The notes beneath the pieces are model-generated. The model was not told the DNA's origin, ran no database searches, and saw only the letters and a list, made by a program, of their open reading frames with translations. A program made the translations under genes and the position numbers. Of a stretch of DNA of 64,000 nucleotides, positions 5,402-64,000 are shown piece by piece. Source of the DNA: Escherichia phage IME08; the sequence record NC_014260.1, one strand, 5' to 3'. Position 1 is the first letter of the stretch. Each line of letters begins with the position of its first letter.

Positions 5402-5477
5402 TGGCCGAGACAGTAGGGATCGAACCTACGACCCAGGACTTAGAAGGTCCTTGCTCTTCCTTCTGAGCTATGCCTCG
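5402..5477 (-). tRNA. tRNA-Arg (anticodon UCU)
   Basis: Hand-folded cloverleaf: 7-bp acceptor, 4-bp D stem, 5-bp anticodon stem, loop CTTCTAA, T loop TTCGATC, encoded CCA. Confidence 0.8.
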
Positions 5478-5481
5478 TATT

Positions 5482-5556
5482 TGGCGGACATGCATGGATT
5501 CGAACCATGGACCAATTGATTAACAGTCAACTGCTCTACCACTGAGCTACACATCC
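5482..5556 (-). tRNA. tRNA-Asn (anticodon GUU)
   Basis: Hand-folded cloverleaf: acceptor GGATGTG/CATGTCC, loop CTGTTAA, T loop TTCGAAT, encoded CCA. Confidence 0.8.
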
Positions 5557-5560
5557 AAAT

Positions 5561-5634
5561 TGGTGGCCCTGGGTGGAATCGAACCACCATCCAGCGATTA
5601 TGAGTCGCTCGCTTGACCGTCCAGCTACAGGGCC
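5561..5634 (-). tRNA. tRNA-Met (anticodon CAU; could be Ile2 if lysidinylated)
   Basis: Hand-folded cloverleaf: acceptor GGCCCTG/CAGGGCC, anticodon loop CTCATAA, T loop TTCGATT, encoded CCA. Confidence 0.75.
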
Positions 5635-23527: not shown

Positions 23528-25059
23528 TGTCTACAAATACACTAAAACACATAAGTGATAAATCAGAATTTAAAACATTCGACCCTACCGGGTCGAATTT
23601 TGACCCCTCTATTACTAATGTCCAAGACGCATTGGCGTCTATTTCCGCTATAGGTGTTACAGGTAATATACCTTCGGCTTCTGAAACAGAACAGGGTATT
23701 ATTAGATTAGCGACCCAACAAGAAGTTATTGATGGTACTGATACTTTCTCTGCGGTAACTCCGGCCACTTTAAAAGGTCGTTTAGATATTCCTACTCAAG
23801 CAACAGAAACTTATGTAGGCATCACCCGTTATGCCACTAATGATGAAGCCATTGCTGGAACAGAAACCCAGGCTGCAATCGTAGCATCGTCTTTGAAAGC
23901 TACTATAGATTATACATTCACCAATCGTTTAGCCACAGAGAACACTACAGGCGTACTCAAGATTTCAACCCTGCCGGCTGCTCTAGCAGGTACAGATGAT
24001 ACAACAGCAATGACGCCTCTGAAAACTGCTCAGGCAATTGGTGCGGCTACATCGGCATTACCGACTTATGCCAGCGCTACCCAAACTGTTGAAGGTATTG
24101 TTAGAATCGCAACAAATGCCGAAGTGGCAAATGGTACATTGACCAATGGTGTGGCAATTTCTCCTTCCGGGTTAAAATCTTTAACTTCTACCCAAGGGCG
24201 AGCAGGTATTATTAGATTAGCCACCCCGCAAGAAGCTTCTGCCGGCAGCGATTCTAATATAGCTTTATCTCCTTCAACTCTTCTTTCTCGTACTGGTACT
24301 ACTGGAAGGTTGGGTGTTGTTAAATTATCGACTACGGTTGGTTCTGGTGATGGGAATACGGCATTGGCATATAATGCTAACGTTATTTCTACCACAGGCG
24401 GCACCATTAACGGTACTTTAAACGTTAATGGTAATTTGCGTCGCAATGGGCGTGATGTTGTTACTATCGACCAATTAAAAGATTCTGTCCCTATCGGTAC
24501 TATTGTTATGTGGGGAGGCCAGATTAATAATATCCCTGCAGGTTGGGCTGTTTGTGATGGTGGTAACTCTGGTGAACAAGGATTCCGAAATGTAGTTGGT
24601 AGTAAATGGGGTTCAACTGGTGCTCGTCCCGACTTCCGTGGATTATATCCGCGTGGAGCAAACCAGACTAATGACGGCGGATTAAGAGAATGGGATGCCA
24701 ACGTTAGAATTAGAGATGCCAAAGGTAATGATGCCAAAGGTAAACCAAGATTAGGCGTAGGCTGTGGTTCATATGGCCATGGTACAGTACAAGCCCAGCA
24801 ACTTCGTTTCCATAAACACGCTGGCGGCTTTGGTGAACACGACAATGCGGGTGCATTTGGTAATACCGTTCGTTCTAACTTTGCTGGTACTCGTAAAGGA
24901 CTGGACTGGGATAACCGTTCTTACTTTACAAACGAAGGATACGAAATTGATGGTTCAGGTTCACGAGATTCAAGAACTACCCTAAACAGTGAAGGGTTAA
25001 TTGGTAACGAAAACCGTCCTTGGACTATGTCCATCCTATTCATTATTAAAGTTGCTTAA
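23527..25059 (+). CDS. 12: gp12 short tail fiber
   Basis: 510 aa; position. Confidence 0.8.
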   Translation: MSTNTLKHISDKSEFKTFDPTGSNFDPSITNVQDALASISAIGVTGNIPSASETEQGIIRLATQQEVIDGTDTFSAVTPATLKGRLDIPTQATETYVGITRYATNDEAIAGTETQAAIVASSLKATIDYTFTNRLATENTTGVLKISTLPAALAGTDDTTAMTPLKTAQAIGAATSALPTYASATQTVEGIVRIATNAEVANGTLTNGVAISPSGLKSLTSTQGRAGIIRLATPQEASAGSDSNIALSPSTLLSRTGTTGRLGVVKLSTTVGSGDGNTALAYNANVISTTGGTINGTLNVNGNLRRNGRDVVTIDQLKDSVPIGTIVMWGGQINNIPAGWAVCDGGNSGEQGFRNVVGSKWGSTGARPDFRGLYPRGANQTNDGGLREWDANVRIRDAKGNDAKGKPRLGVGCGSYGHGTVQAQQLRFHKHAGGFGEHDNAGAFGNTVRSNFAGTRKGLDWDNRSYFTNEGYEIDGSGSRDSRTTLNSEGLIGNENRPWTMSILFIIKVA

Positions 25060-25069
25060 GGAAATAAAA

Positions 25070-27469
25070 ATGATTGACAAACTGAGTATTAAAGAACTTC
25101 CGTTTGTCGATGGTGTACCTGATGCATCCCAAGAGCGTATCCGTTGGATACGCAATGGAGAATGTATTGAAGGAGCCACGACTAAATACGGTCACGACGG
25201 TAATTTGAACGCCCCTGCTTTAGGAGTACAAACCAACGTAGTTAGATTAGAAGAAAACAGTATAGCTTCTAAAGACAAAATTAACGAGCTTGTGGATAAC
25301 GTTAATTTGATTAATGAAGCCCTAGATATTTCTACTGATACGGCGGTTATTCAGCAAATTGAAAAGAACCGTGTCGATATACTGGCTGTGGATGAAAAGG
25401 CTTCCGAAACTAAACAAGAATTAGGTGACTTAACCGTTAATTTTAATTTTTTAGAAGAAGATGTAGGTTATTATGGCCCGTCTTTAGATGGCCCATATCT
25501 CACCGTCAGAGAAAATATAAATCTTCTTAAATCTGAAATTGGTCACTATGCAAACCAGGACATAAACAGCCAGCCGCTTCCTCCAGGTGAAACCTCTGAA
25601 GCCACCGGCATGAAACGTCGCATTATGGATAATACCAGTGCTATTGTCGACCATTCACAACGTATAGATACCCTTGAAAAGAATTACGAAGATTCTGATG
25701 TAGGGCAACTTGGGCTTAAGATTAACGAAATTCGTGAAGAACTCGGTCCACATATTGATACAGTAGGTAAACAACCAGCATATACCAGGATTTCTGCTCT
25801 TGAAACTGCTGCTGAAAGCTTTAATGAATCAATAGATTCCATCAAGACCAGTATAGGTTTTGATAAAGGCTCTATTGATACAAGAGTAAGCACGCTGGAA
25901 ACTAAAACTTCCACTTTAGAAAACACGGTTAATAACGGTTTGGTTCCTAGAGTTACTGCGGTAGAGACCGCTATCGGTACTGCGGATACCCCTACTTCTA
26001 TTAACGGTAGATTAGGTGGCTTACGTACTGATGTTAATGAGCTAAAAAATATAGTTGGTGATAGTTCGTCTGAAGGGCTTCGTTTCCAGGTTTCTGATAT
26101 TGACCGTAAAATTGGTGCTGATGTAAGTCCGGCGGCAGGAACAATTAATAAACGTTTGAATGACCTTACAACTCAAGGTAATACTTCAGCCTCTACTATT
26201 CAGGACCTGCAGGCAGAGATTGGTAATAACCAAACAGGTATTAAGGGTTCTATTCTTAAAATTACCAACCAGATTGAAGGAACCAACCCTAACGGTAGTA
26301 CTGTAGAAGAACGAGGGTTAATAAACTCTGTTAAAGGCCTTGAAGCCCAAATGCCTACTAAATTGGGTGAAGCTCCTGCTGATGGTAAATTGTATGGGCG
26401 TAAGGATTCAGCTTGGTCTGAAATTATTGACGGCACCACAGAAATTGATGCAGTCAAAGCTTCTTTATTGGTTACAGACGGTAAAGTATCAGCTTTAACG
26501 GCAAGAGTCGATTCCAATGACACTTCAATTTCTTCTCTTGATACACGTACCGGAGCTTTAAACACTTCAGTAGGAGAAATTAAAGCCGATATCGTTTTGT
26601 TAAAATCTAAAGACACCGAGCAAGATAGTCGTATCACAGCTTTAGAAGAAAGTGATGTTACCGTTAATGGAAAAATAACGGCACTTGAATCTAAAACCGA
26701 TACCACTGATTCTGATGTTACTGCTTTGGCCTTAGATGTGAGTTCTATAGAATCGCAATTAACTCCTATTAAAGCTGATATAACTAAGAACAAAGGCGAT
26801 ATCGTTACTTTAACCGGACGAGTAGCTGCTAATGAAGGTGAAATTACCGATATTAAATTGGACACCGCTAAAATAGCTCCTTTAACCACCAGAGTCACTA
26901 CTGCTGAAGGTAAAATTGCCACCTTAGAAACCGGTTTAGCTGCTGTTAAAGTTGAATCTGATAAAGTTGCAGGAATTAATACCCGTTTAGGTACAGCTGA
27001 AGGTAAAATTACCACCTTAGAAACCGGTTTGGACGATGTTAAAGTTGAATCCGATAAAGTTGCAGGGATCGATACCCGTTTAGGTGTTGTTGAAGTTGAA
27101 TCTGGTAAAGTGGCTGGAATCAATACCCGCTTAGGCGTTGTTGAAGGTGAAGTTAGTACTCTTGAAACCGGGTTGGCAGCAGTTAAAGTTGAATCCGATA
27201 AAGTTGCAGGAATCAATACCCGTTTAGGTACGGTAGAAGGTAAAGTTGGTACTCTTGAAACAGGTTTAGCGGCGGTTAAAGTTGAATCTGATAAAGTTGC
27301 TGATTTAGGAACCCGTTTAACTGCGGCTGAAGGTAAAATCACTGCACTAGAAACTGAGTTGGCTAAACGCCCTCCTGTTGCTCCTGCAGCTGATGGACTT
27401 CCGTATGTTCTGGTTGATAATGCATGGGTTCTATTGTCAGATTTTGTGACTTTAAACTCAGCACCATAA
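25070..27469 (+). CDS. wac: fibritin (whiskers), expanded coiled coil
   Basis: N-terminus LPFVDG.P...RI.WI.NGE and C-terminal foldon-like tail match T4 wac; start moved to ATG 25070. Confidence 0.9.
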   Translation: MIDKLSIKELPFVDGVPDASQERIRWIRNGECIEGATTKYGHDGNLNAPALGVQTNVVRLEENSIASKDKINELVDNVNLINEALDISTDTAVIQQIEKNRVDILAVDEKASETKQELGDLTVNFNFLEEDVGYYGPSLDGPYLTVRENINLLKSEIGHYANQDINSQPLPPGETSEATGMKRRIMDNTSAIVDHSQRIDTLEKNYEDSDVGQLGLKINEIREELGPHIDTVGKQPAYTRISALETAAESFNESIDSIKTSIGFDKGSIDTRVSTLETKTSTLENTVNNGLVPRVTAVETAIGTADTPTSINGRLGGLRTDVNELKNIVGDSSSEGLRFQVSDIDRKIGADVSPAAGTINKRLNDLTTQGNTSASTIQDLQAEIGNNQTGIKGSILKITNQIEGTNPNGSTVEERGLINSVKGLEAQMPTKLGEAPADGKLYGRKDSAWSEIIDGTTEIDAVKASLLVTDGKVSALTARVDSNDTSISSLDTRTGALNTSVGEIKADIVLLKSKDTEQDSRITALEESDVTVNGKITALESKTDTTDSDVTALALDVSSIESQLTPIKADITKNKGDIVTLTGRVAANEGEITDIKLDTAKIAPLTTRVTTAEGKIATLETGLAAVKVESDKVAGINTRLGTAEGKITTLETGLDDVKVESDKVAGIDTRLGVVEVESGKVAGINTRLGVVEGEVSTLETGLAAVKVESDKVAGINTRLGTVEGKVGTLETGLAAVKVESDKVADLGTRLTAAEGKITALETELAKRPPVAPAADGLPYVLVDNAWVLLSDFVTLNSAP
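26903..27360 (+). repeat. intragenic tandem repeat in wac, period about 93 bp (31 aa), about 5 copies
   Basis: Repeated unit AEGKI.TLETGLAAVKVESDKVAGINTRLGT read on DNA and protein. Confidence 0.8.
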
Positions 27470-27470
27470 T

Positions 27471-27493
27471 AAAAGGGCTTCGGCCCTTTTTTG
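27471..27493 (+). terminator. rho-independent terminator after wac (GGGC-UUCG-GCCC + U6)
   Basis: Read on DNA. Confidence 0.8.
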
Positions 27494-27494
27494 C

Positions 27495-27502
27495 TATAAA
27501 TA
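27495..27502 (+). promoter_or_regulatory. late promoter TATAAATA (gene 13)
   Basis: Exact octamer just after wac terminator. Confidence 0.6.
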
Positions 27503-27523
27503 CGGTTATTAGAGGAATAAAAT

Positions 27524-28456
27524 ATGGCAAGTGAATCATTTAACCCTAAGCAACTCAAGGACGCTATTCTGCGCCGCCTGGGTGCGCCAATTACAAATAT
27601 TGAAGTAACTACAGACCAAGTATACGATTGCATCCAGCGGGCCCTAGAGCTCTACGGTGAGTATCATTATAACGGGTATAACAAAGGTTATCAGGCTTTT
27701 TATATCGGTCATGGCGATGAAGAAAAATTCCGTAATGGAGTATTTGACCTTAAAGGCCGTAATATATTTGCAGTGACACAAATTTTGAGAACCAATGTAG
27801 GTTCTTTAACATCTATGGATGGGCAAGCAACTTATCCGTGGTTTACTGATTTTGTATTAGGCTTAGCAGGTATTAATGGCGGGTTAGGGTCTTCGTGTAA
27901 CAGTTTTGGACCTAATGCCTTCGGTGCTGACCTTGGTTATTTTACCCAGTTAATGCAATATCGTTCTATGATGCAGGACCTTTTGGTTCCACTACCTGAT
28001 TATTGGTATAACGACGCCACCGAACAGTTGAAGGTAATGGGTAACTTTGTTAAAGGCGATTTTATTGTAATTGAAGTTTATACTCACTCTTTTAATGGGG
28101 TCGATTCTATGGTAGGAAATACTGTAGGATATGGTTATGCTTCAGCTTGCGGTGAAGATGCATGGAGCCCGGGTGCTGTTTGGGATAACCCATCACGTCG
28201 TATTTCTGGTATGCGTGTAGGTGAGGACCTAGGTCTTCAAGATGGTGCATATAATAACCGTTGGGTTAAAGATTATGCCACTGCATTGGTTAAAGAAGTC
28301 AATGGTAATATTTTAGCCAAACACCAAGGCATGCAACTTGCAGGTGGAACCACCGTAGATGGTATTCGATTGATTGAAGAGGCTCGTTTAGAAAAAGAAC
28401 GTCTTCGTGAAGAATTAGATTTACTCGACCCACCAACACCTATTTTAATTGGATAA
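27524..28456 (+). CDS. 13: gp13 neck protein
   Basis: 310 aa vs T4 309 aa; position; TATAAATA upstream. Confidence 0.85.
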
Positions 28457-38967: not shown

Positions 38968-40527
38968 ATGAAAAAGAATGCATTAGTTCAAAAATGGTCC
39001 GCTCTGCTGGAAAACGAAGCTCTTCCTGAAATCGTTGGTGCTTCTAAACAAGCTATCATCGCTAAAATTTTCGAAAACCAGGAACAAGACATCCTGACTG
39101 CTCCAGAATATCGTGACGAAAAAATCTCCGAAGCATTTGGTTCTTTCCTGACTGAAGCTGAAATCGGTGGTGACCACGGTTATGATGCTACCAATATCGC
39201 AGCTGGCCAGACCTCTGGTGCTGTAACTCAGATTGGGCCGGCAGTAATGGGTATGGTTCGTCGTGCTATTCCTCATCTGATTGCTTTTGATATTTGTGGT
39301 GTTCAGCCTCTGAATAACCCTACTGGTCAGGTATTTGCACTGCGTGCAGTATACGGTAAAGACCCTATCGCTGCAGGCGCTAAAGAAGCTTTCCATCCGA
39401 TGTATGCTCCGAACGCTATGTTCTCTGGTCAGGGTGCTGCTGAAACTTTCGAAGCACTGGCTGCAAGCAAAGTTCTGGAAGTTGGTAAAATTTATTCTCA
39501 CTTCTTCGAAGCTACCGGTGCTGCACACTTCCAGGCTGTTGAAGCTGTGACCGTTGATGCAGGCGCTACTGATGCCGCTAAACTGGATGCTGCTGTTACC
39601 GCTCTGGTTGAAGCTGGTCAACTGGCTGAAATCGCTGAAGGTATGGCTACTTCTATCGCTGAACTTCAGGAAGGTTTCAACGGTTCTACCGATAACCCGT
39701 GGAACGAAATGGGCTTCCGCATCGACAAACAAGTTATCGAAGCTAAATCCCGTCAGCTGAAAGCAAGCTACTCTATCGAACTGGCACAGGACCTTCGTGC
39801 AGTACACGGTATGGATGCAGATGCTGAACTGTCCGGTATCCTTGCTACCGAAATTATGCTCGAAATCAACCGTGAAGTTATCGATTGGATTAACTACTCT
39901 GCACAGGTTGGTAAATCTGGTATGACCAACACCGTTGGCGCTAAAGCTGGTGTGTTTGACTTCCAGGACCCGATTGATATCCGTGGTGCTCGTTGGGCCG
40001 GTGAGAGCTTTAAAGCCCTTCTGTTCCAGATTGATAAAGAAGCAGCCGAAATCGCTCGTCAGACCGGTCGTGGTGCTGGTAACTTCATCATCGCTTCCCG
40101 TAACGTAGTTAACGTACTGGCTGCAGTTGATACTTCTGTAAGTTATGCAGCTCAAGGTTTGGGTCAGGGTTTCAACGTTGACACAACCAAAGCAGTATTT
40201 GCCGGTGTTCTTGGTGGTAAATATCGTGTTTACATCGACCAGTATGCTCGTTCCGATTACTTCACCATCGGTTATAAAGGTTCTAACGAAATGGACGCAG
40301 GTATCTACTATGCTCCGTACGTTGCACTGACTCCGCTGCGTGGTTCCGATCCGAAGAACTTCCAACCGGTAATGGGCTTCAAAACTCGTTACGGTATCGG
40401 TATTAACCCGTTCGCTGACCCAGCTGCTCAGGCGCCTACCAAACGTATTCAGAATGGTATGCCTGACATCGTTAACAGCCTCGGTCTGAATGGTTACTTC
40501 CGTCGCGTTTACGTTAAGGGAATTTGA
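38968..40527 (+). CDS. 23: gp23 major capsid protein
   Basis: 519 aa vs T4 521 aa; position. Confidence 0.95.
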   Translation: MKKNALVQKWSALLENEALPEIVGASKQAIIAKIFENQEQDILTAPEYRDEKISEAFGSFLTEAEIGGDHGYDATNIAAGQTSGAVTQIGPAVMGMVRRAIPHLIAFDICGVQPLNNPTGQVFALRAVYGKDPIAAGAKEAFHPMYAPNAMFSGQGAAETFEALAASKVLEVGKIYSHFFEATGAAHFQAVEAVTVDAGATDAAKLDAAVTALVEAGQLAEIAEGMATSIAELQEGFNGSTDNPWNEMGFRIDKQVIEAKSRQLKASYSIELAQDLRAVHGMDADAELSGILATEIMLEINREVIDWINYSAQVGKSGMTNTVGAKAGVFDFQDPIDIRGARWAGESFKALLFQIDKEAAEIARQTGRGAGNFIIASRNVVNVLAAVDTSVSYAAQGLGQGFNVDTTKAVFAGVLGGKYRVYIDQYARSDYFTIGYKGSNEMDAGIYYAPYVALTPLRGSDPKNFQPVMGFKTRYGIGINPFADPAAQAPTKRIQNGMPDIVNSLGLNGYFRRVYVKGI

Positions 40528-40557
40528 TAACATAAGTTATTAATTCTTAAATTATTT

Positions 40558-60270: not shown

Positions 60271-60275
60271 CAAAA

Positions 60276-60299
60276 AAGGAGAGCGTATGCTCTCCTTTA
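60276..60299. terminator. bidirectional terminator between gene 54 and 60306..60596
   Basis: A-run, GGAGAGC-GUAU-GCUCUCC, T-run. Confidence 0.75.
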
Positions 60300-60305
60300 G
60301 GGGGT

Positions 60306-60596
60306 TTACTTACGGAACGAAATGAAACCTGCCGCCGTCATTAGCGGTTGCTTTTTAACAAATACCGTAACTGAAATAGGAGCTTCGGATTCAAGCTGAC
60401 CAGTCACTACACCATTAAAGATATTTTCAGTTTGTTCCGGCTGAGAAAAGTTCTCAACAGGGCGGATATCAAATTGCTTATCTTCACCGAAAACTCGACG
60501 CAATTCATTACCAATGGCACTGTCAAACTCTTCGGAAGCAGGGATAACGTTTTCAACTACCAGTTCTTGACCATTAAAACGGAATGCAGATTTCAT
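60306..60596 (-). CDS. hypothetical early protein
   Basis: ORF track; leader/promoter nearly identical to that of the gene at 1..243. Confidence 0.5.
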   Translation of the reverse strand: MKSAFRFNGQELVVENVIPASEEFDSAIGNELRRVFGEDKQFDIRPVENFSQPEQTENIFNGVVTGQLESEAPISVTVFVKKQPLMTAAGFISFRK

Positions 60597-60624
60597 AATG
60601 TTCTCCTCATGTTTGTGTAAGGTA

Positions 60625-60654
60625 ATAGTACCACATCCATGTGGTGTTGTAAAC
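60625..60654 (-). promoter_or_regulatory. early-type promoter GTTTAC-N18-TACTAT
   Basis: Upstream of 60306..60596. Confidence 0.5.
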
Positions 60655-62777
60655 TACATTTTGAATTTATTTGGCAGAGCAGAGATATCCAAAGATGCAG
60701 CAAGGATTTCCATAGCCTCGTTGCTTTCAGAAACAGATTCACTAACCAAGAACTGTTTAAAGCCATCCATCGGACGAACTTCACCGGTTTCCATCAGATG
60801 GTCGCCGTCATAAACAGATTCACTGAGCTCTGAAGGAGACATCACAGTAGCTTCCATAAGATATTTGTGAGATACCCTATCATTCATAGCAAAAGCCGCT
60901 ACTTTATCAACCTTCATCAATAATCCGCGCGGAAGGATAATTTCTGCTTCTTCAGCGTATTCTGTAAGGTCACCAGGAGCGATAACTTTAACTGCTTCAG
61001 CACCTCGAATAACCATACCAATTTCAGCAATTCTATCCGCAGGGCCTTCAGGTGCAATTGGATTACCAAACTCGTCTTCTTCCCATTCTACCTCTTCATC
61101 GTCGACTTCACCTACATCAGATGAACTACCGCTAGCCAATTTAAACAACTCATCAGCGGAGGATAAAGAACCTTCACCACCAACAAAAACGGCTTGGTTG
61201 TCGAGGGCCATATAATTTTTACCGAATTCACCAAAGATGTTAGGCTTTAGTGAGGCGGACACAAAGTTCTTAAAGTAAAATGTTTTGTTATCGATATTAT
61301 GACGCAGAATTTTGTATGGCAAATCCTGACCACGATACAAAATAGTACCCTTAGGAAGTTTAATACCCTTAGTAAATGCCGAGTCTAAATCCTTAATCAA
61401 TCTAATAGCCGTTGTATTGTTTTCGGATTCAGGTTTACCTAAAAGGAATAAGTTCATAGGAGCATATTCAGCTGCGCAATATTCAATAATAGCATTGCTT
61501 TCGTCTTTGGTTAGGTCCTTAGGTTTAATGAGCTCGCCTGAATAAGCATATGCATCACCAATAGAATCGTTAATCAGTTTATAAACGGCTTCCATAGCGA
61601 AAGCAATTCGAGATGCCTTTTCTGAAGGGGAGCCATTAAAACGGGCACTCAGGTTATTAACAATTCTCTTAATAATATCCAGACTATTGGTAGTATTGAT
61701 TTGCGAAAGGCCGCTTAAAAGTCTATCGACTTCTGTATTAAAAAATGCCATATTTTTAGAGTAAATTTCAAACCCTTGTTTATCTCTATTAGCATAATTT
61801 AGTTTAAATTTACTATCAGTCATTAAAGCATGTGTGAGAGCAATAGTGTATCTAAAGTTAGCAAGGTCCTCGCTCTTAGATTTAAACTGAGAAGCCTGGC
61901 GCATTTTGGTAATAGCACCTTTTTTAAAGTTCTGACTAATCTGTTCAATACCTTCGTTCTCAGGGCCTTCGGCAGTGTGAACCGGTACAGAAGCTTCAAA
62001 CTCGTTATAAACCTGCAATTCTTTAGGGGACAAAGTTTCAGGCTCAGCAGTAGAATACTGCGCGGCAGCCGCCATACGACGGGAAATCTTAGTACGAGTA
62101 ATGACAGCCTTATCGGTACGTTTCTCTTCAACCTGTGCAATAGATGCCGCTACGGCTTCGACCTTACTTACGGCCTGGCCGGTTTTCTTAGAAACATACA
62201 CTTCGCCGACTTTAGAATCGACTTTGGTATAAAGGTCGGCATCAATTTCAGGCATGCCTTTGATATCTTCGATATTGGAACCACGACGTACTAAAAGAAC
62301 GTAGGTATGTTTTCCACTGAACTGGAACATGCTATCAACAACTTTAAACTTACCGCCAGTACGAGCCATCGCTAAACGTGCCAATACGCGCTGAACAGTA
62401 GGACCCTTACCTTTCATTTTCTTGGTAGGGAAACGGAATAAAACTGCATCCATTTTAAGTTTGTTTACTTGTTCGTATACAGTATCGAAAATGGTATTCA
62501 GTGTACCAAGTGGGTCAGAACCAAGGCCACCCTTAAGTTCAGCCGGAGCACCCTTGCTTGACAAACTCATTAGAATAACATGAATGTATTTGTCGCCTGG
62601 CTTAACCATTTTAATAGCGTCTCCTTGAGACGCATAAGATACCATACGAGCAACCAGGTTATCATTACCTGGTGCATGGATAGAGAAAATCTGTGGAATA
62701 CCGGAACCCGGTTTAAGATTTGTTACTGGATAGTTTTTAGCGGAATCACTATCAAAAACCTCGTTTAAATTTTCCAT
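60654..62777 (-). CDS. Alt-family ADP-ribosyltransferase paralog
   Basis: 707 aa; N-terminus resembles T4 Alt; C-terminal half has LYRGQ, FYFKNFVSASL, EIILPRGL, DGDHLMETGE blocks. Confidence 0.8.
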   Translation of the reverse strand: MENLNEVFDSDSAKNYPVTNLKPGSGIPQIFSIHAPGNDNLVARMVSYASQGDAIKMVKPGDKYIHVILMSLSSKGAPAELKGGLGSDPLGTLNTIFDTVYEQVNKLKMDAVLFRFPTKKMKGKGPTVQRVLARLAMARTGGKFKVVDSMFQFSGKHTYVLLVRRGSNIEDIKGMPEIDADLYTKVDSKVGEVYVSKKTGQAVSKVEAVAASIAQVEEKRTDKAVITRTKISRRMAAAAQYSTAEPETLSPKELQVYNEFEASVPVHTAEGPENEGIEQISQNFKKGAITKMRQASQFKSKSEDLANFRYTIALTHALMTDSKFKLNYANRDKQGFEIYSKNMAFFNTEVDRLLSGLSQINTTNSLDIIKRIVNNLSARFNGSPSEKASRIAFAMEAVYKLINDSIGDAYAYSGELIKPKDLTKDESNAIIEYCAAEYAPMNLFLLGKPESENNTTAIRLIKDLDSAFTKGIKLPKGTILYRGQDLPYKILRHNIDNKTFYFKNFVSASLKPNIFGEFGKNYMALDNQAVFVGGEGSLSSADELFKLASGSSSDVGEVDDEEVEWEEDEFGNPIAPEGPADRIAEIGMVIRGAEAVKVIAPGDLTEYAEEAEIILPRGLLMKVDKVAAFAMNDRVSHKYLMEATVMSPSELSESVYDGDHLMETGEVRPMDGFKQFLVSESVSESNEAMEILAASLDISALPNKFKM

Positions 62778-62780
62778 TAT

Positions 62781-63998
62781 TTACCCTTGGATGAATTTTT
62801 CTGGGATGTCATAGAGGTCTATGCATGAAGCCAAAAGAGGCAGTACATCAAACCGTGTAGATTTGACAAATGAATCAAAAGATACAGGGCTTTCGGAAGT
62901 ATCGAAGTCATCTTGATATACGACCAACTCGCCGGTTTCCATTAGTACGTCACCATCATACACCACAGATTCTTGAAGCTCATCTGTCGTCATAACTTCA
63001 GCTTGGATGAGTTTTGTATTATTAGATGTTGTTCCGTCATTATTAGAAGCATCTGTTATTTTATTAACTTTGACCATCAATCCGCGCGGTAGAATAACTT
63101 CAGCTTCTGTTGCTATTCCGAGACTTCCTGGATATACAACATTGACTTTATGAGCCCCATCAATCGCCCATCCTATTTGAACTTTAACGTAATCAGGATT
63201 TTCTTTATACGCTCTTATTTCATTAGGATTAATAGTTATTCCTTCTTCATTTTTATCGACTGTCAATTCATCGCGAACTTCCGGTTCTAAAAGACCAATA
63301 CCAGCGTGTGTAACACCAAATCGTCCAAAAATGATAGGGGTTAAAGAAGTAGATACAAAATTTCTGAAATAGAACACTTTATTTTTAACTAGTGCTTCGT
63401 ATATAGGAGCAGTCATACTCTGTGCACGATAAACTGTGATGCCTTCTGGTATACGGTCACCGTTTTCAAAAGCAGAATCCAAATTATTGACTGCAGATTC
63501 AATAGATTTTTCGTTCATTACATCATAGTTATGAGGATTATAGCGTCCTAAAAGAAGATTATTGATGTCTGTATATCCAGAACCACAATATTCTCTGATG
63601 CCGCGCTTTTGTGATGGGGTATATTTAGAGCCCTCACGAGCAATAGTAATATCGACCATAATACCGCCGCCCACACCAGCAAAACTATATACGCGTTTTT
63701 TAATGAATTTGGTCTTGGCTGCTTTCCACTTGGACTCGGTCAATTCATTCCAGAGGTCGTCGGGTTGGCCTTTACGAGTTTTGTTATGCTGGGCCAACCA
63801 TTCGCCTTTGTATTCTTCGAAAACGGTATTAATAACAGAGGCATATTTTTCTAGAGCTTTAACAGATGTCAAAGGTTCGTTTTTGATGGCTGTAAGAATT
63901 TTCTCTTTAATTTTCTCTTGGATTTCACCTATACCATGAAGAGGAAACATTTTATAATCGTAATGCAACTCTTCAGCAGTGCCTTCGGCTACTATATT
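62781..63998 (-). CDS. alt: Alt ADP-ribosyltransferase, 5' end beyond window
   Basis: Near-collinear with T4 Alt C-terminal half (YTP.QKRGIREY.GSGY.DINN, FYFRNFVSTSL, VKVNKITDAS.NDGT, ASCIDI); frame open to window edge. Confidence 0.85.
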   Translation of the reverse strand, partial: NIVAEGTAEELHYDYKMFPLHGIGEIQEKIKEKILTAIKNEPLTSVKALEKYASVINTVFEEYKGEWLAQHNKTRKGQPDDLWNELTESKWKAAKTKFIKKRVYSFAGVGGGIMVDITIAREGSKYTPSQKRGIREYCGSGYTDINNLLLGRYNPHNYDVMNEKSIESAVNNLDSAFENGDRIPEGITVYRAQSMTAPIYEALVKNKVFYFRNFVSTSLTPIIFGRFGVTHAGIGLLEPEVRDELTVDKNEEGITINPNEIRAYKENPDYVKVQIGWAIDGAHKVNVVYPGSLGIATEAEVILPRGLMVKVNKITDASNNDGTTSNNTKLIQAEVMTTDELQESVVYDGDVLMETGELVVYQDDFDTSESPVSFDSFVKSTRFDVLPLLASCIDLYDIPEKFIQG

Positions 63999-64000
63999 AG

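Follow-up and report, generated by a model that had tools for sequence, protein, structure and literature searches.

The 64,000 nucleotides (nt) of Escherichia phage IME08 analysed here (NC_014260.1; this whole stretch is called the window below) end in a pair of genes for ADP-ribosyltransferases of the Alt family, which are termed altB (60654..62777) and altA (62781..>64000). That two tandem genes of this family lie at this site had been proposed in an initial annotation and is borne out by the open reading frames (ORFs), by the Pfam profile PF03496 ADPrib_exo_Tox (E 5e-18 for AltB and 2e-36 for AltA, where the match spans the whole profile) and by PHROG 802, "Alt-like RNA polymerase ADP-ribosyltransferase", which matches AltB over its full length with E 4.5e-251 and AltA with E 8.4e-124. 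These PF03496 and PHROG 802 scores are far beyond chance, and 60654..64000 thus holds two tandem paralogs of Alt-family ADP-ribosyltransferases. The limits given earlier (an ORF of 707 amino acids (aa) at 60654..62777 and a second one from 62781 to the window end) are right, and the strand, which had been left unstated, is the minus strand for both genes. As altA is read from the minus strand, the end that is missing from the window is the N-terminus and not the C-terminus: the ORF 62781..63998 translates into 405 residues followed by a terminal stop codon, and the start codon lies about 865 nt past the window end. NCBIfam contains no model for AltA or AltB, the local Pfam search gave no match in the N-terminal and middle regions of AltB, and searches of PDB sequences with the full AltB, its N-terminal domain and its catalytic part returned nothing significant. 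All homologs in the large protein database carry the precomputed label PF26846.

The genomic position is that of the Alt family, with genes 29 and 48, the baseplate gene 54 and an alt.-3 homolog in the window and with alt.1 and the DNA ligase gene 30 seen in relatives that are 92-96% identical to the window in DNA. The order gene 54 - alt.-3 - altB - altA - alt.1 - gene 30 is common to JS10, ABTNLsp5, IME341, AnYang, T4 and AR1, and alt.-3 is a conserved downstream neighbour of the alt cluster that holds the equal position in JS10, T4 and AR1. Over 6 kb around the cluster the window shares 96% DNA identity with Salmonella phage ABTNLsp5 and with IME341, its closest genomes, and about 92% with JS10, which places the phage in Dhakavirus, among the T4-type coliphages of the JS10/JS98 group.

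Tandem alt genes are already known, with annotated cases in JS10, JS98, AR1, T6 and hundreds of further genomes. In the JS10 record (EU863409; ACL78420, ACL78419) the genes are named alta and "altb: Alt RNA polymerase ADP-ribosylase", and the altA and altB genes of JS10 and JS98 are like those of the window in locus, order, strand and length (694 and 707 aa). Between JS10 and the window, AltB is 96% and the C-terminal part of AltA 97% identical, so that the differences are allelic only, at about 92.5% nucleotide identity. Both ABTNLsp5 and IME341 have the two-gene arrangement of JS10, with IME341 reaching 99.6% amino acid identity in AltB and 99.8% in the C-terminus of AltA (694 aa in IME341). 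The paralogs of alt in RB49, 44RR and T4 were listed by Nolan et al. 2006, where tandem alt duplications were also noted (PMC1524935). A literature search on altA and altB returned nothing, and the JS98 and JS10 papers that were found do not discuss the genes. The genomic feature as such is therefore ordinary and changes nothing; what remains of value is that altB represents a conserved, uncharacterised second Alt lineage missing from the model phage, and that its product is a mosaic in which the N-terminal domain tracks the genome and the effector part tracks the lineage.

Table 1. Features of the alt cluster in the window, with amino acid positions for AltB where available
Feature	Position	Strand	Remarks
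altB	60654..62777	-	complete gene for a 707-aa Alt-family ADP-ribosyltransferase; ORF with ATG start; stop codon 60654..60656
AltB N-terminal domain, aa 1-235	62073..62777	-	common to all Alt proteins; contains the L4-N-E6 site
AltB middle region, aa 236-419	61521..62072	-	lineage-specific; all-helical in the model; no Pfam match
AltB catalytic domain, aa 420-647	60837..61520	-	ADP-ribosyltransferase of the R-S-E / C3-VIP2 type
AltB Arg482 in LYRGQ	61332..61334	-	conserved in all 9 aligned sequences; at least 90% of the 61 homologs have it
AltB S507-A-S509	61251..61259	-	S-T-S motif with Ala in the centre; S507 invariant
AltB insertion, aa 516-582	61032..61232	-	inside the catalytic domain between S-x-S and E-x-E; strongly acidic, partly disordered
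AltB E610-A-E612	60942..60950	-	E-x-E; both Glu invariant in 61 homologs
AltB C-terminal tail, aa 648-707	60657..60836	-	L-S-E653 ... YDGDHLMETGE block; E653 invariant
altA	62781..64000	-	3' 58% of the gene upstream of altB; C-terminal 405 aa and stop codon
AltA V-Y-R-A-Q	63420..63434	-	catalytic Arg, from the alignment
AltA F-V-S-T-S	63345..63359	-	S-T-S motif, from the alignment
AltA E-A-E-V-I-L-P-R-G	63081..63107	-	E-x-E motif, from the alignment
altA/altB spacer	62778..62780	-	3 nt from the altA stop to the altB ATG (..GGG TAA ATA ATG..)
alt.-3 homolog	60306..60596	-	96 aa; DUF5498; PF17602 E 6e-34; PHROG 1739

Catalytic motifs and domains

The catalytic residues were compared in an alignment of 9 sequences, in which AltB and AltA of the window stand beside the Alt proteins of JS10, AnYang, ABTNLsp5 and T4, and in a set of 61 family members from a large protein database. 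The catalytic Arg, both Ser of S-x-S and both Glu of E-x-E are invariant in AltA, AltB and T4 Alt in the 9-sequence alignment. The pattern extends to the 61 family members, with Arg482 kept in at least 90% of them. The initial annotation had called for such an alignment with an eye to a loss of the catalytic Arg or Glu, and neither copy has lost either. The blocks that it had quoted for the first gene are all present in AltB: LYRGQ at aa 480-484, FYFKNFVSASL (which includes aa 505-509) and the EIILPRGL block as part of EAEIILPRGL at aa 610-619. The structural model of AltB has the expected ADP-ribosyltransferase fold, in which the Arg and the S-T-S position occupy successive strands and E/Q-x-E follows the ARTT loop. 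The predicted local distance difference test score (pLDDT) is 86-96 around the active site, and confidence is low after aa 665. An E-x-E motif is typical of arginine-specific transferases. The C3, VIP2, Vis, Certhrax and iota-type R-S-E toxins share just 13-26% sequence identity with the Alt proteins, which differ from them by a large insertion after the S-x-S strand and by phage-specific N-terminal and middle regions; moreover, Alt is delivered from the phage head, whereas the bacterial toxins are secreted.

A distinctive part of AltB lies between its S-x-S and E-x-E motifs. The insertion at aa 516-582 comprises 67 residues, 18 of which are D or E as against 3 K or R, and its aa 552-578 have a pLDDT below 50 in the model. 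From S-x-S to E-x-E, the segment of AltB measures 100 aa with a net charge of -17; in the 59 members that are not Dhakavirus AltB, it is 57-91 aa long and has a net charge of -10 to +2. The AltB proteins of the window and of JS10 thus have the longest and most acidic segment of the 61 members compared. The residues just ahead of E-x-E differ as well, with DLTEYAEEAE in AltB vs SLGIATEAE in AltA. In C3-like toxins, the loops between S-x-S and E-x-E determine substrate choice.

A further block near the C-terminus, L-x-E-S-V-x-Y-D-G-D-x-L-M-E-T-G-E, is nearly invariant in all Alt copies and is found at 60780..60827 (-) and 62928..62978 (-) in the window. It carries two (L/I)xE motifs, at aa 651-653 in 57 of the 61 homologs and at aa 661-663 in 43 of them, which may be further sites for the prohead protease or structural elements.

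At the opposite end, AltB begins with M-E-N-L-N-E|V, where L4-N-E6 fits the (L/I)xE motif of the T4 prohead protease. This motif is present at aa 4-6 in 59 of the 61 homologs, and its Glu is invariant. For AltA, the protein of IME341, the C-terminal 405 aa of which are 99.8% identical, stands in and has an Alt-type N-terminal domain with the (L/I)xE motif. The first 235 residues of AltB are presumed to be a head-packaging module. Within them, two conserved glycine-rich loops, L81-K-G-G-L-G86 and K118..G124, precede the helices 89-106 and 125-139; L81 and G86 are invariant and G84 is present in at least 90% of the 61 homologs, and the leading Q/R is absent from the motif with which GNAT proteins bind the pyrophosphate of acetyl-CoA, Q/R-x-x-G-x-G/A between strand 4 and helix 3. 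The similarity of the domain to the GNAT fold is modest and no sequence profile supports GNAT, nor did the literature search turn up a paper linking Alt to this fold, so that a (pseudo-)GNAT fold is a weak lead.

Alt lineages across phages

Full-length AltA was taken from relatives in which the C-terminal 405 aa are 98.5-99.8% identical to AltA of the window, and the proteins were compared by domain (aa 1-235, the middle region at aa 236-419 and the catalytic part at aa 420-707). Overall identity is 47% between AltA and T4 Alt, 32% between AltB and T4 Alt and 40% between AltA and AltB, in agreement with the earlier statement that the second gene is the one nearer to T4 Alt. The catalytic part of AltA is 61-62% identical to that of T4 Alt vs 37% to that of AltB. 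AltA groups with T4 Alt and the upstream copy of AR1, a Tequatrovirus with two full-length tandem alt genes (middle region 35%, catalytic part 61-62%), and AltB groups with the downstream copy of AR1 (45% and 60%). By comparison, AltB reaches just 16-17% in the middle region and 37-40% in the catalytic part against AltA and T4 Alt. Its middle region is 14-17% identical to those of AltA, T4 Alt and the middle copy of AnYang, and identity across the lineages generally amounts to 13-17% in the middle region and 35-40% in the catalytic part. A neighbour-joining tree of the catalytic part places the AltA and AltB lineages in separate clades. AltA is accordingly the ortholog of T4 Alt, and AltB belongs to a second, old Alt lineage together with the downstream alt of AR1 and T6. 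As this grouping holds across genera, the duplication is older than the split between Dhakavirus and Tequatrovirus.

The downstream alt of Tequatrovirus (AR1, T6 and RB32-like phages; YP_009168012) occupies the position of altB and is the closest relative of AltB outside Dhakavirus, with 47.8% identity overall. Its closest relative among the 61 members, P0005, has an S-x-S to E-x-E segment of 86 aa with a net charge of -8. A copy of the AR1 type is found at 90% identity or more in about 400 phage records, T6 among them, and Alt-like places number 1765 in 1220 records. The searched literature contains no experimental characterisation of the Tequatrovirus downstream copy. Within Dhakavirus, dN/dS is 0.04-0.15 for both genes (0.05-0.07 for altB), which means strong purifying selection on altA and altB alike.

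The N-terminal domain follows a different pattern. The initial annotation had held that the first gene keeps an Alt-like N-terminal region, and aa 1-235 of AltB are indeed 42% identical to T4 Alt. Paralogs within a genome are 66-67% identical over these 235 aa in both genera, compared with 42-45% for orthologs; the N-terminal domain of the AR1 downstream copy, for instance, shares 67% with the other Alt of its own genome vs 44% with AltB. The N-terminal domain thus groups by genome and the middle and catalytic parts by lineage, which makes the protein a mosaic. Either the N-terminal module has been homogenised within genomes, or it has been co-adapted to the head of each phage. Recent gene conversion of the N-terminal domains was considered and rejected, as their DNA is just 70-81% identical and lacks long identical tracts; for the same reason any conversion would not be recent.

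Close relatives have between 1 and 3 alt copies, and three are present in AnYang, C6, MX01, QL01 and fDHCT2. The middle copy of AnYang (L003:8782-10827) is flanked by altA and altB. Over the N-terminal 235 aa it shares 91% identity with AltB, whereas its middle region and catalytic part represent a third type, with 14-23% and 35-46% identity, respectively, to AltA or AltB. It looks like a chimera produced by a swap of the effector part, which points to modular exchange.

In T4, Alt (gpAlt, NP_049811) resembles AltA and AltB in its three-part architecture and in the R, S-x-S and E-x-E residues, and its gene lies, like those of the window, between alt.-3/gene 54 and alt.1/gene 30. AltB differs from it in an unrelated middle region (16%) and in the acidic S-x-S to E-x-E segment of 100 aa. 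At the site of altB, T4 has just a remnant of 128 codons, alt.-1/alt.-2. Translated in two frames, this segment (L004:5066-5451) matches aa 1-116 of the AR1 downstream alt (L005:4001-6058) at 95-97% identity, and T4 Alt itself at just 56-61%. Because alt.-1/alt.-2 match the AR1 downstream copy better than T4 Alt, T4 has lost a gene of the altB lineage by truncation and frameshift; the GenBank note for T4 already traces alt.-1/alt.-2 to an old duplication that took in the first part of alt. The initial annotation had contrasted the two genes of the window with a single alt and small ORFs in T4. The inventory is correct, as the T4 record lists alt, alt.-1, alt.-2 and alt.-3, but the contrast is misleading given that the two-gene state is widespread and old; T4 is the exception and the window shows the common state. 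The phage from which all knowledge of Alt derives is therefore atypical, its second alt being reduced to alt.-1/alt.-2.

Presumed role and rival explanations

Neither the late-promoter octamer (N)ATAAATA nor TATAAATA or NATAAATA is found on either strand of 60600..64000, and sigma-70-like matches are no commoner than in shuffled sequence. An independent altB promoter was rejected on these grounds. In IME341, a hairpin and then CATAAATA lie just upstream of altA; at the equivalent position upstream of alt, T4 has the same hairpin and then TATAAATA. Since no promoter separates the two genes and the spacer is 3 nt long, we infer that altA and altB are co-transcribed, and they would form one late transcript.

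T4 Alt, an NAD+:arginine mono-ADP-ribosyltransferase, is a component of the prohead core, present in about 40 copies, from which the gp21 protease removes a small N-terminal peptide (PMC9958956). After injection along with the DNA, it ADP-ribosylates one alpha subunit of RNA polymerase, at Arg265, as well as EF-Tu, MazF and others (PMC2988021, PMC8120803). By analogy, AltA and AltB would become part of the prohead core and be cut by the prohead protease at the L-x-E site conserved near their N-terminus, before being injected together with the DNA. Inside the cell, they would modify arginines of host proteins by ADP-ribosylation during the first minute of infection, with NAD+ of the host as donor. 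The AltB lineage predates the split between Dhakavirus and Tequatrovirus and has been lost by T4.

The preferred reading, to which a probability of about 0.85 is given, is that of a two-gene Dhakavirus alt cluster in which AltA is the ortholog of T4 Alt and AltB a member of a second lineage with partly different targets. AltB most likely modifies a set of host proteins that differs in part from that of AltA, and the odds are roughly even that the principal targets of the two are distinct. Different targets, as the initial annotation had suggested, are plausible because the lineages have stayed separate and are conserved in both genera, and because their middle regions are unrelated in sequence and the loops flanking the active site differ. 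If AltB does have targets of its own, most T-even-type phages would modify a broader range of host proteins in the first seconds of infection than the T4 model implies. A more specific and rather tentative version, rated at somewhat less than even, sees in AltB an old and widespread second injected ADP-ribosyltransferase of T-even-type phages with a principal target of its own, perhaps a defence protein or a basic protein binding nucleic acids that its acidic loop would engage. AltB would have gone unstudied because T4 lost it, and its N-terminal domain may be a (pseudo-)GNAT.

Several points speak against the preferred reading. Neither the altA start nor the presumed late promoter falls within the window, and both were read solely from relatives that are 96-99% identical. 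In AltB, S-A-S replaces the canonical S-T-S, and outside Dhakavirus AltB the S-A-S form occurs in one family member. Packaging, injection, arginine specificity and targets of the Dhakavirus Alt proteins would all follow from homology to T4 Alt. Lastly, with some 27 targets of T4 Alt, overlapping specificity of the paralogs would not be surprising. This overlap is a serious rival, given the promiscuity of T4 Alt, the ability of T4 to dispense with a second copy and a copy number that ranges from 1 to 3. In its full form, it states that the paralogs are redundant, with the same host targets (RNA polymerase alpha and others) and a second copy that adds dose or robustness towards host strains. The likeness of AltA and AltB in architecture, catalytic motifs and presumed packaging domain fits with this, as do the good growth of T4 without an intact second copy, the variable copy number among close relatives and the at least 27 targets reported for T4 Alt (PMC8120803). 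On the other hand, catalytic domains that are 37% identical, in lineages that remain distinct across two genera, are unexpected for simple dosage copies, both genes are under strong purifying selection, and the middle region and the loops around the active site are lineage-specific. Redundancy is therefore possible but on the whole unlikely.

Two further explanations concern AltB only. An inactive second copy as such was rejected on the conservation of the motifs together with dN/dS. A catalytically inactive AltB could still be imagined as an internal protein of the head with a structural function, or as a non-enzymatic binder acting through its acidic loop and serving, for instance, to decoy host proteins that are basic and bind nucleic acids. 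It would draw on the S-A-S motif, found where the other aligned sequences read S-T-S, and on an insertion in the catalytic domain that is unusually long, disordered and highly acidic. Yet R482, S507, S509, E610 and E612 are conserved along with the surrounding ILPRG block, the fold is predicted confidently at the active site, and the middle residue of S-x-S varies elsewhere too, with S-A-S in JS10 AltB (P0001) and in the more distant P0013 and S-C-S in P0101; this explanation is thus very improbable. Hardly better are the prospects of an AltB that stays out of the head and has a late intracellular role like ModA or ModB, with AltA alone being injected. The packaging signals of Alt are undefined at the sequence level, which leaves some room for it, but AltB retains the whole N-terminal domain of Alt, which shares 66-67% identity with its counterpart in AltA from the same genome and has the conserved L-x-E site, and its gene starts 3 nt downstream of altA without a promoter of its own. 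ModA and ModB of T4, moreover, lack the Alt N-terminal domain. Like Alt, they are ADP-ribosyltransferases of the R-S-E type and come from the same phage group, but they are small early proteins that are synthesised after infection, are not packaged and have neither the N-terminal nor the middle region of Alt. ModA also targets Arg265 of RNA polymerase alpha (PMC2988021, PMC8120803).

Neighbouring and antisense features

Directly after the altB stop codon, the alt.-3 homolog has an early-type promoter-like site of its own, TTTACA-17-TACTAT with TG, at 60653..60625 (-). Between alt.-3 and the convergent gene 54 lies a hairpin of 10 bp (60275..60298), a probable terminator for both directions.

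Long ORFs antisense to altB, such as 61830..62294 (+), were treated as by-products of the coding strand. Similar frames are seen elsewhere in the window. An ATG ORF of 516 aa (38983..40533, -) lies almost exactly antisense to the gene of the major head protein (38968..40527, +); it has no PHROG match, and the matching antisense frame of T4 is closed, with a longest ORF of 132 aa. This ORF is probably a by-product of codon bias and not a gene. Another ORF, of 477 aa (26200..27633, -) and likewise without a PHROG match, is antisense to the fibritin (wac-like) gene at 25001..27469 (+). As called, the fibritin ORF has 822 aa and a TTG start, and the PHROG fibritin match spans its aa 24-627. Finally, a cluster of three tRNA genes at 5402..5634 (-), for Arg(TCT), Asn(GTT) and Met(CAT), was called by ARAGORN and Rfam alike.

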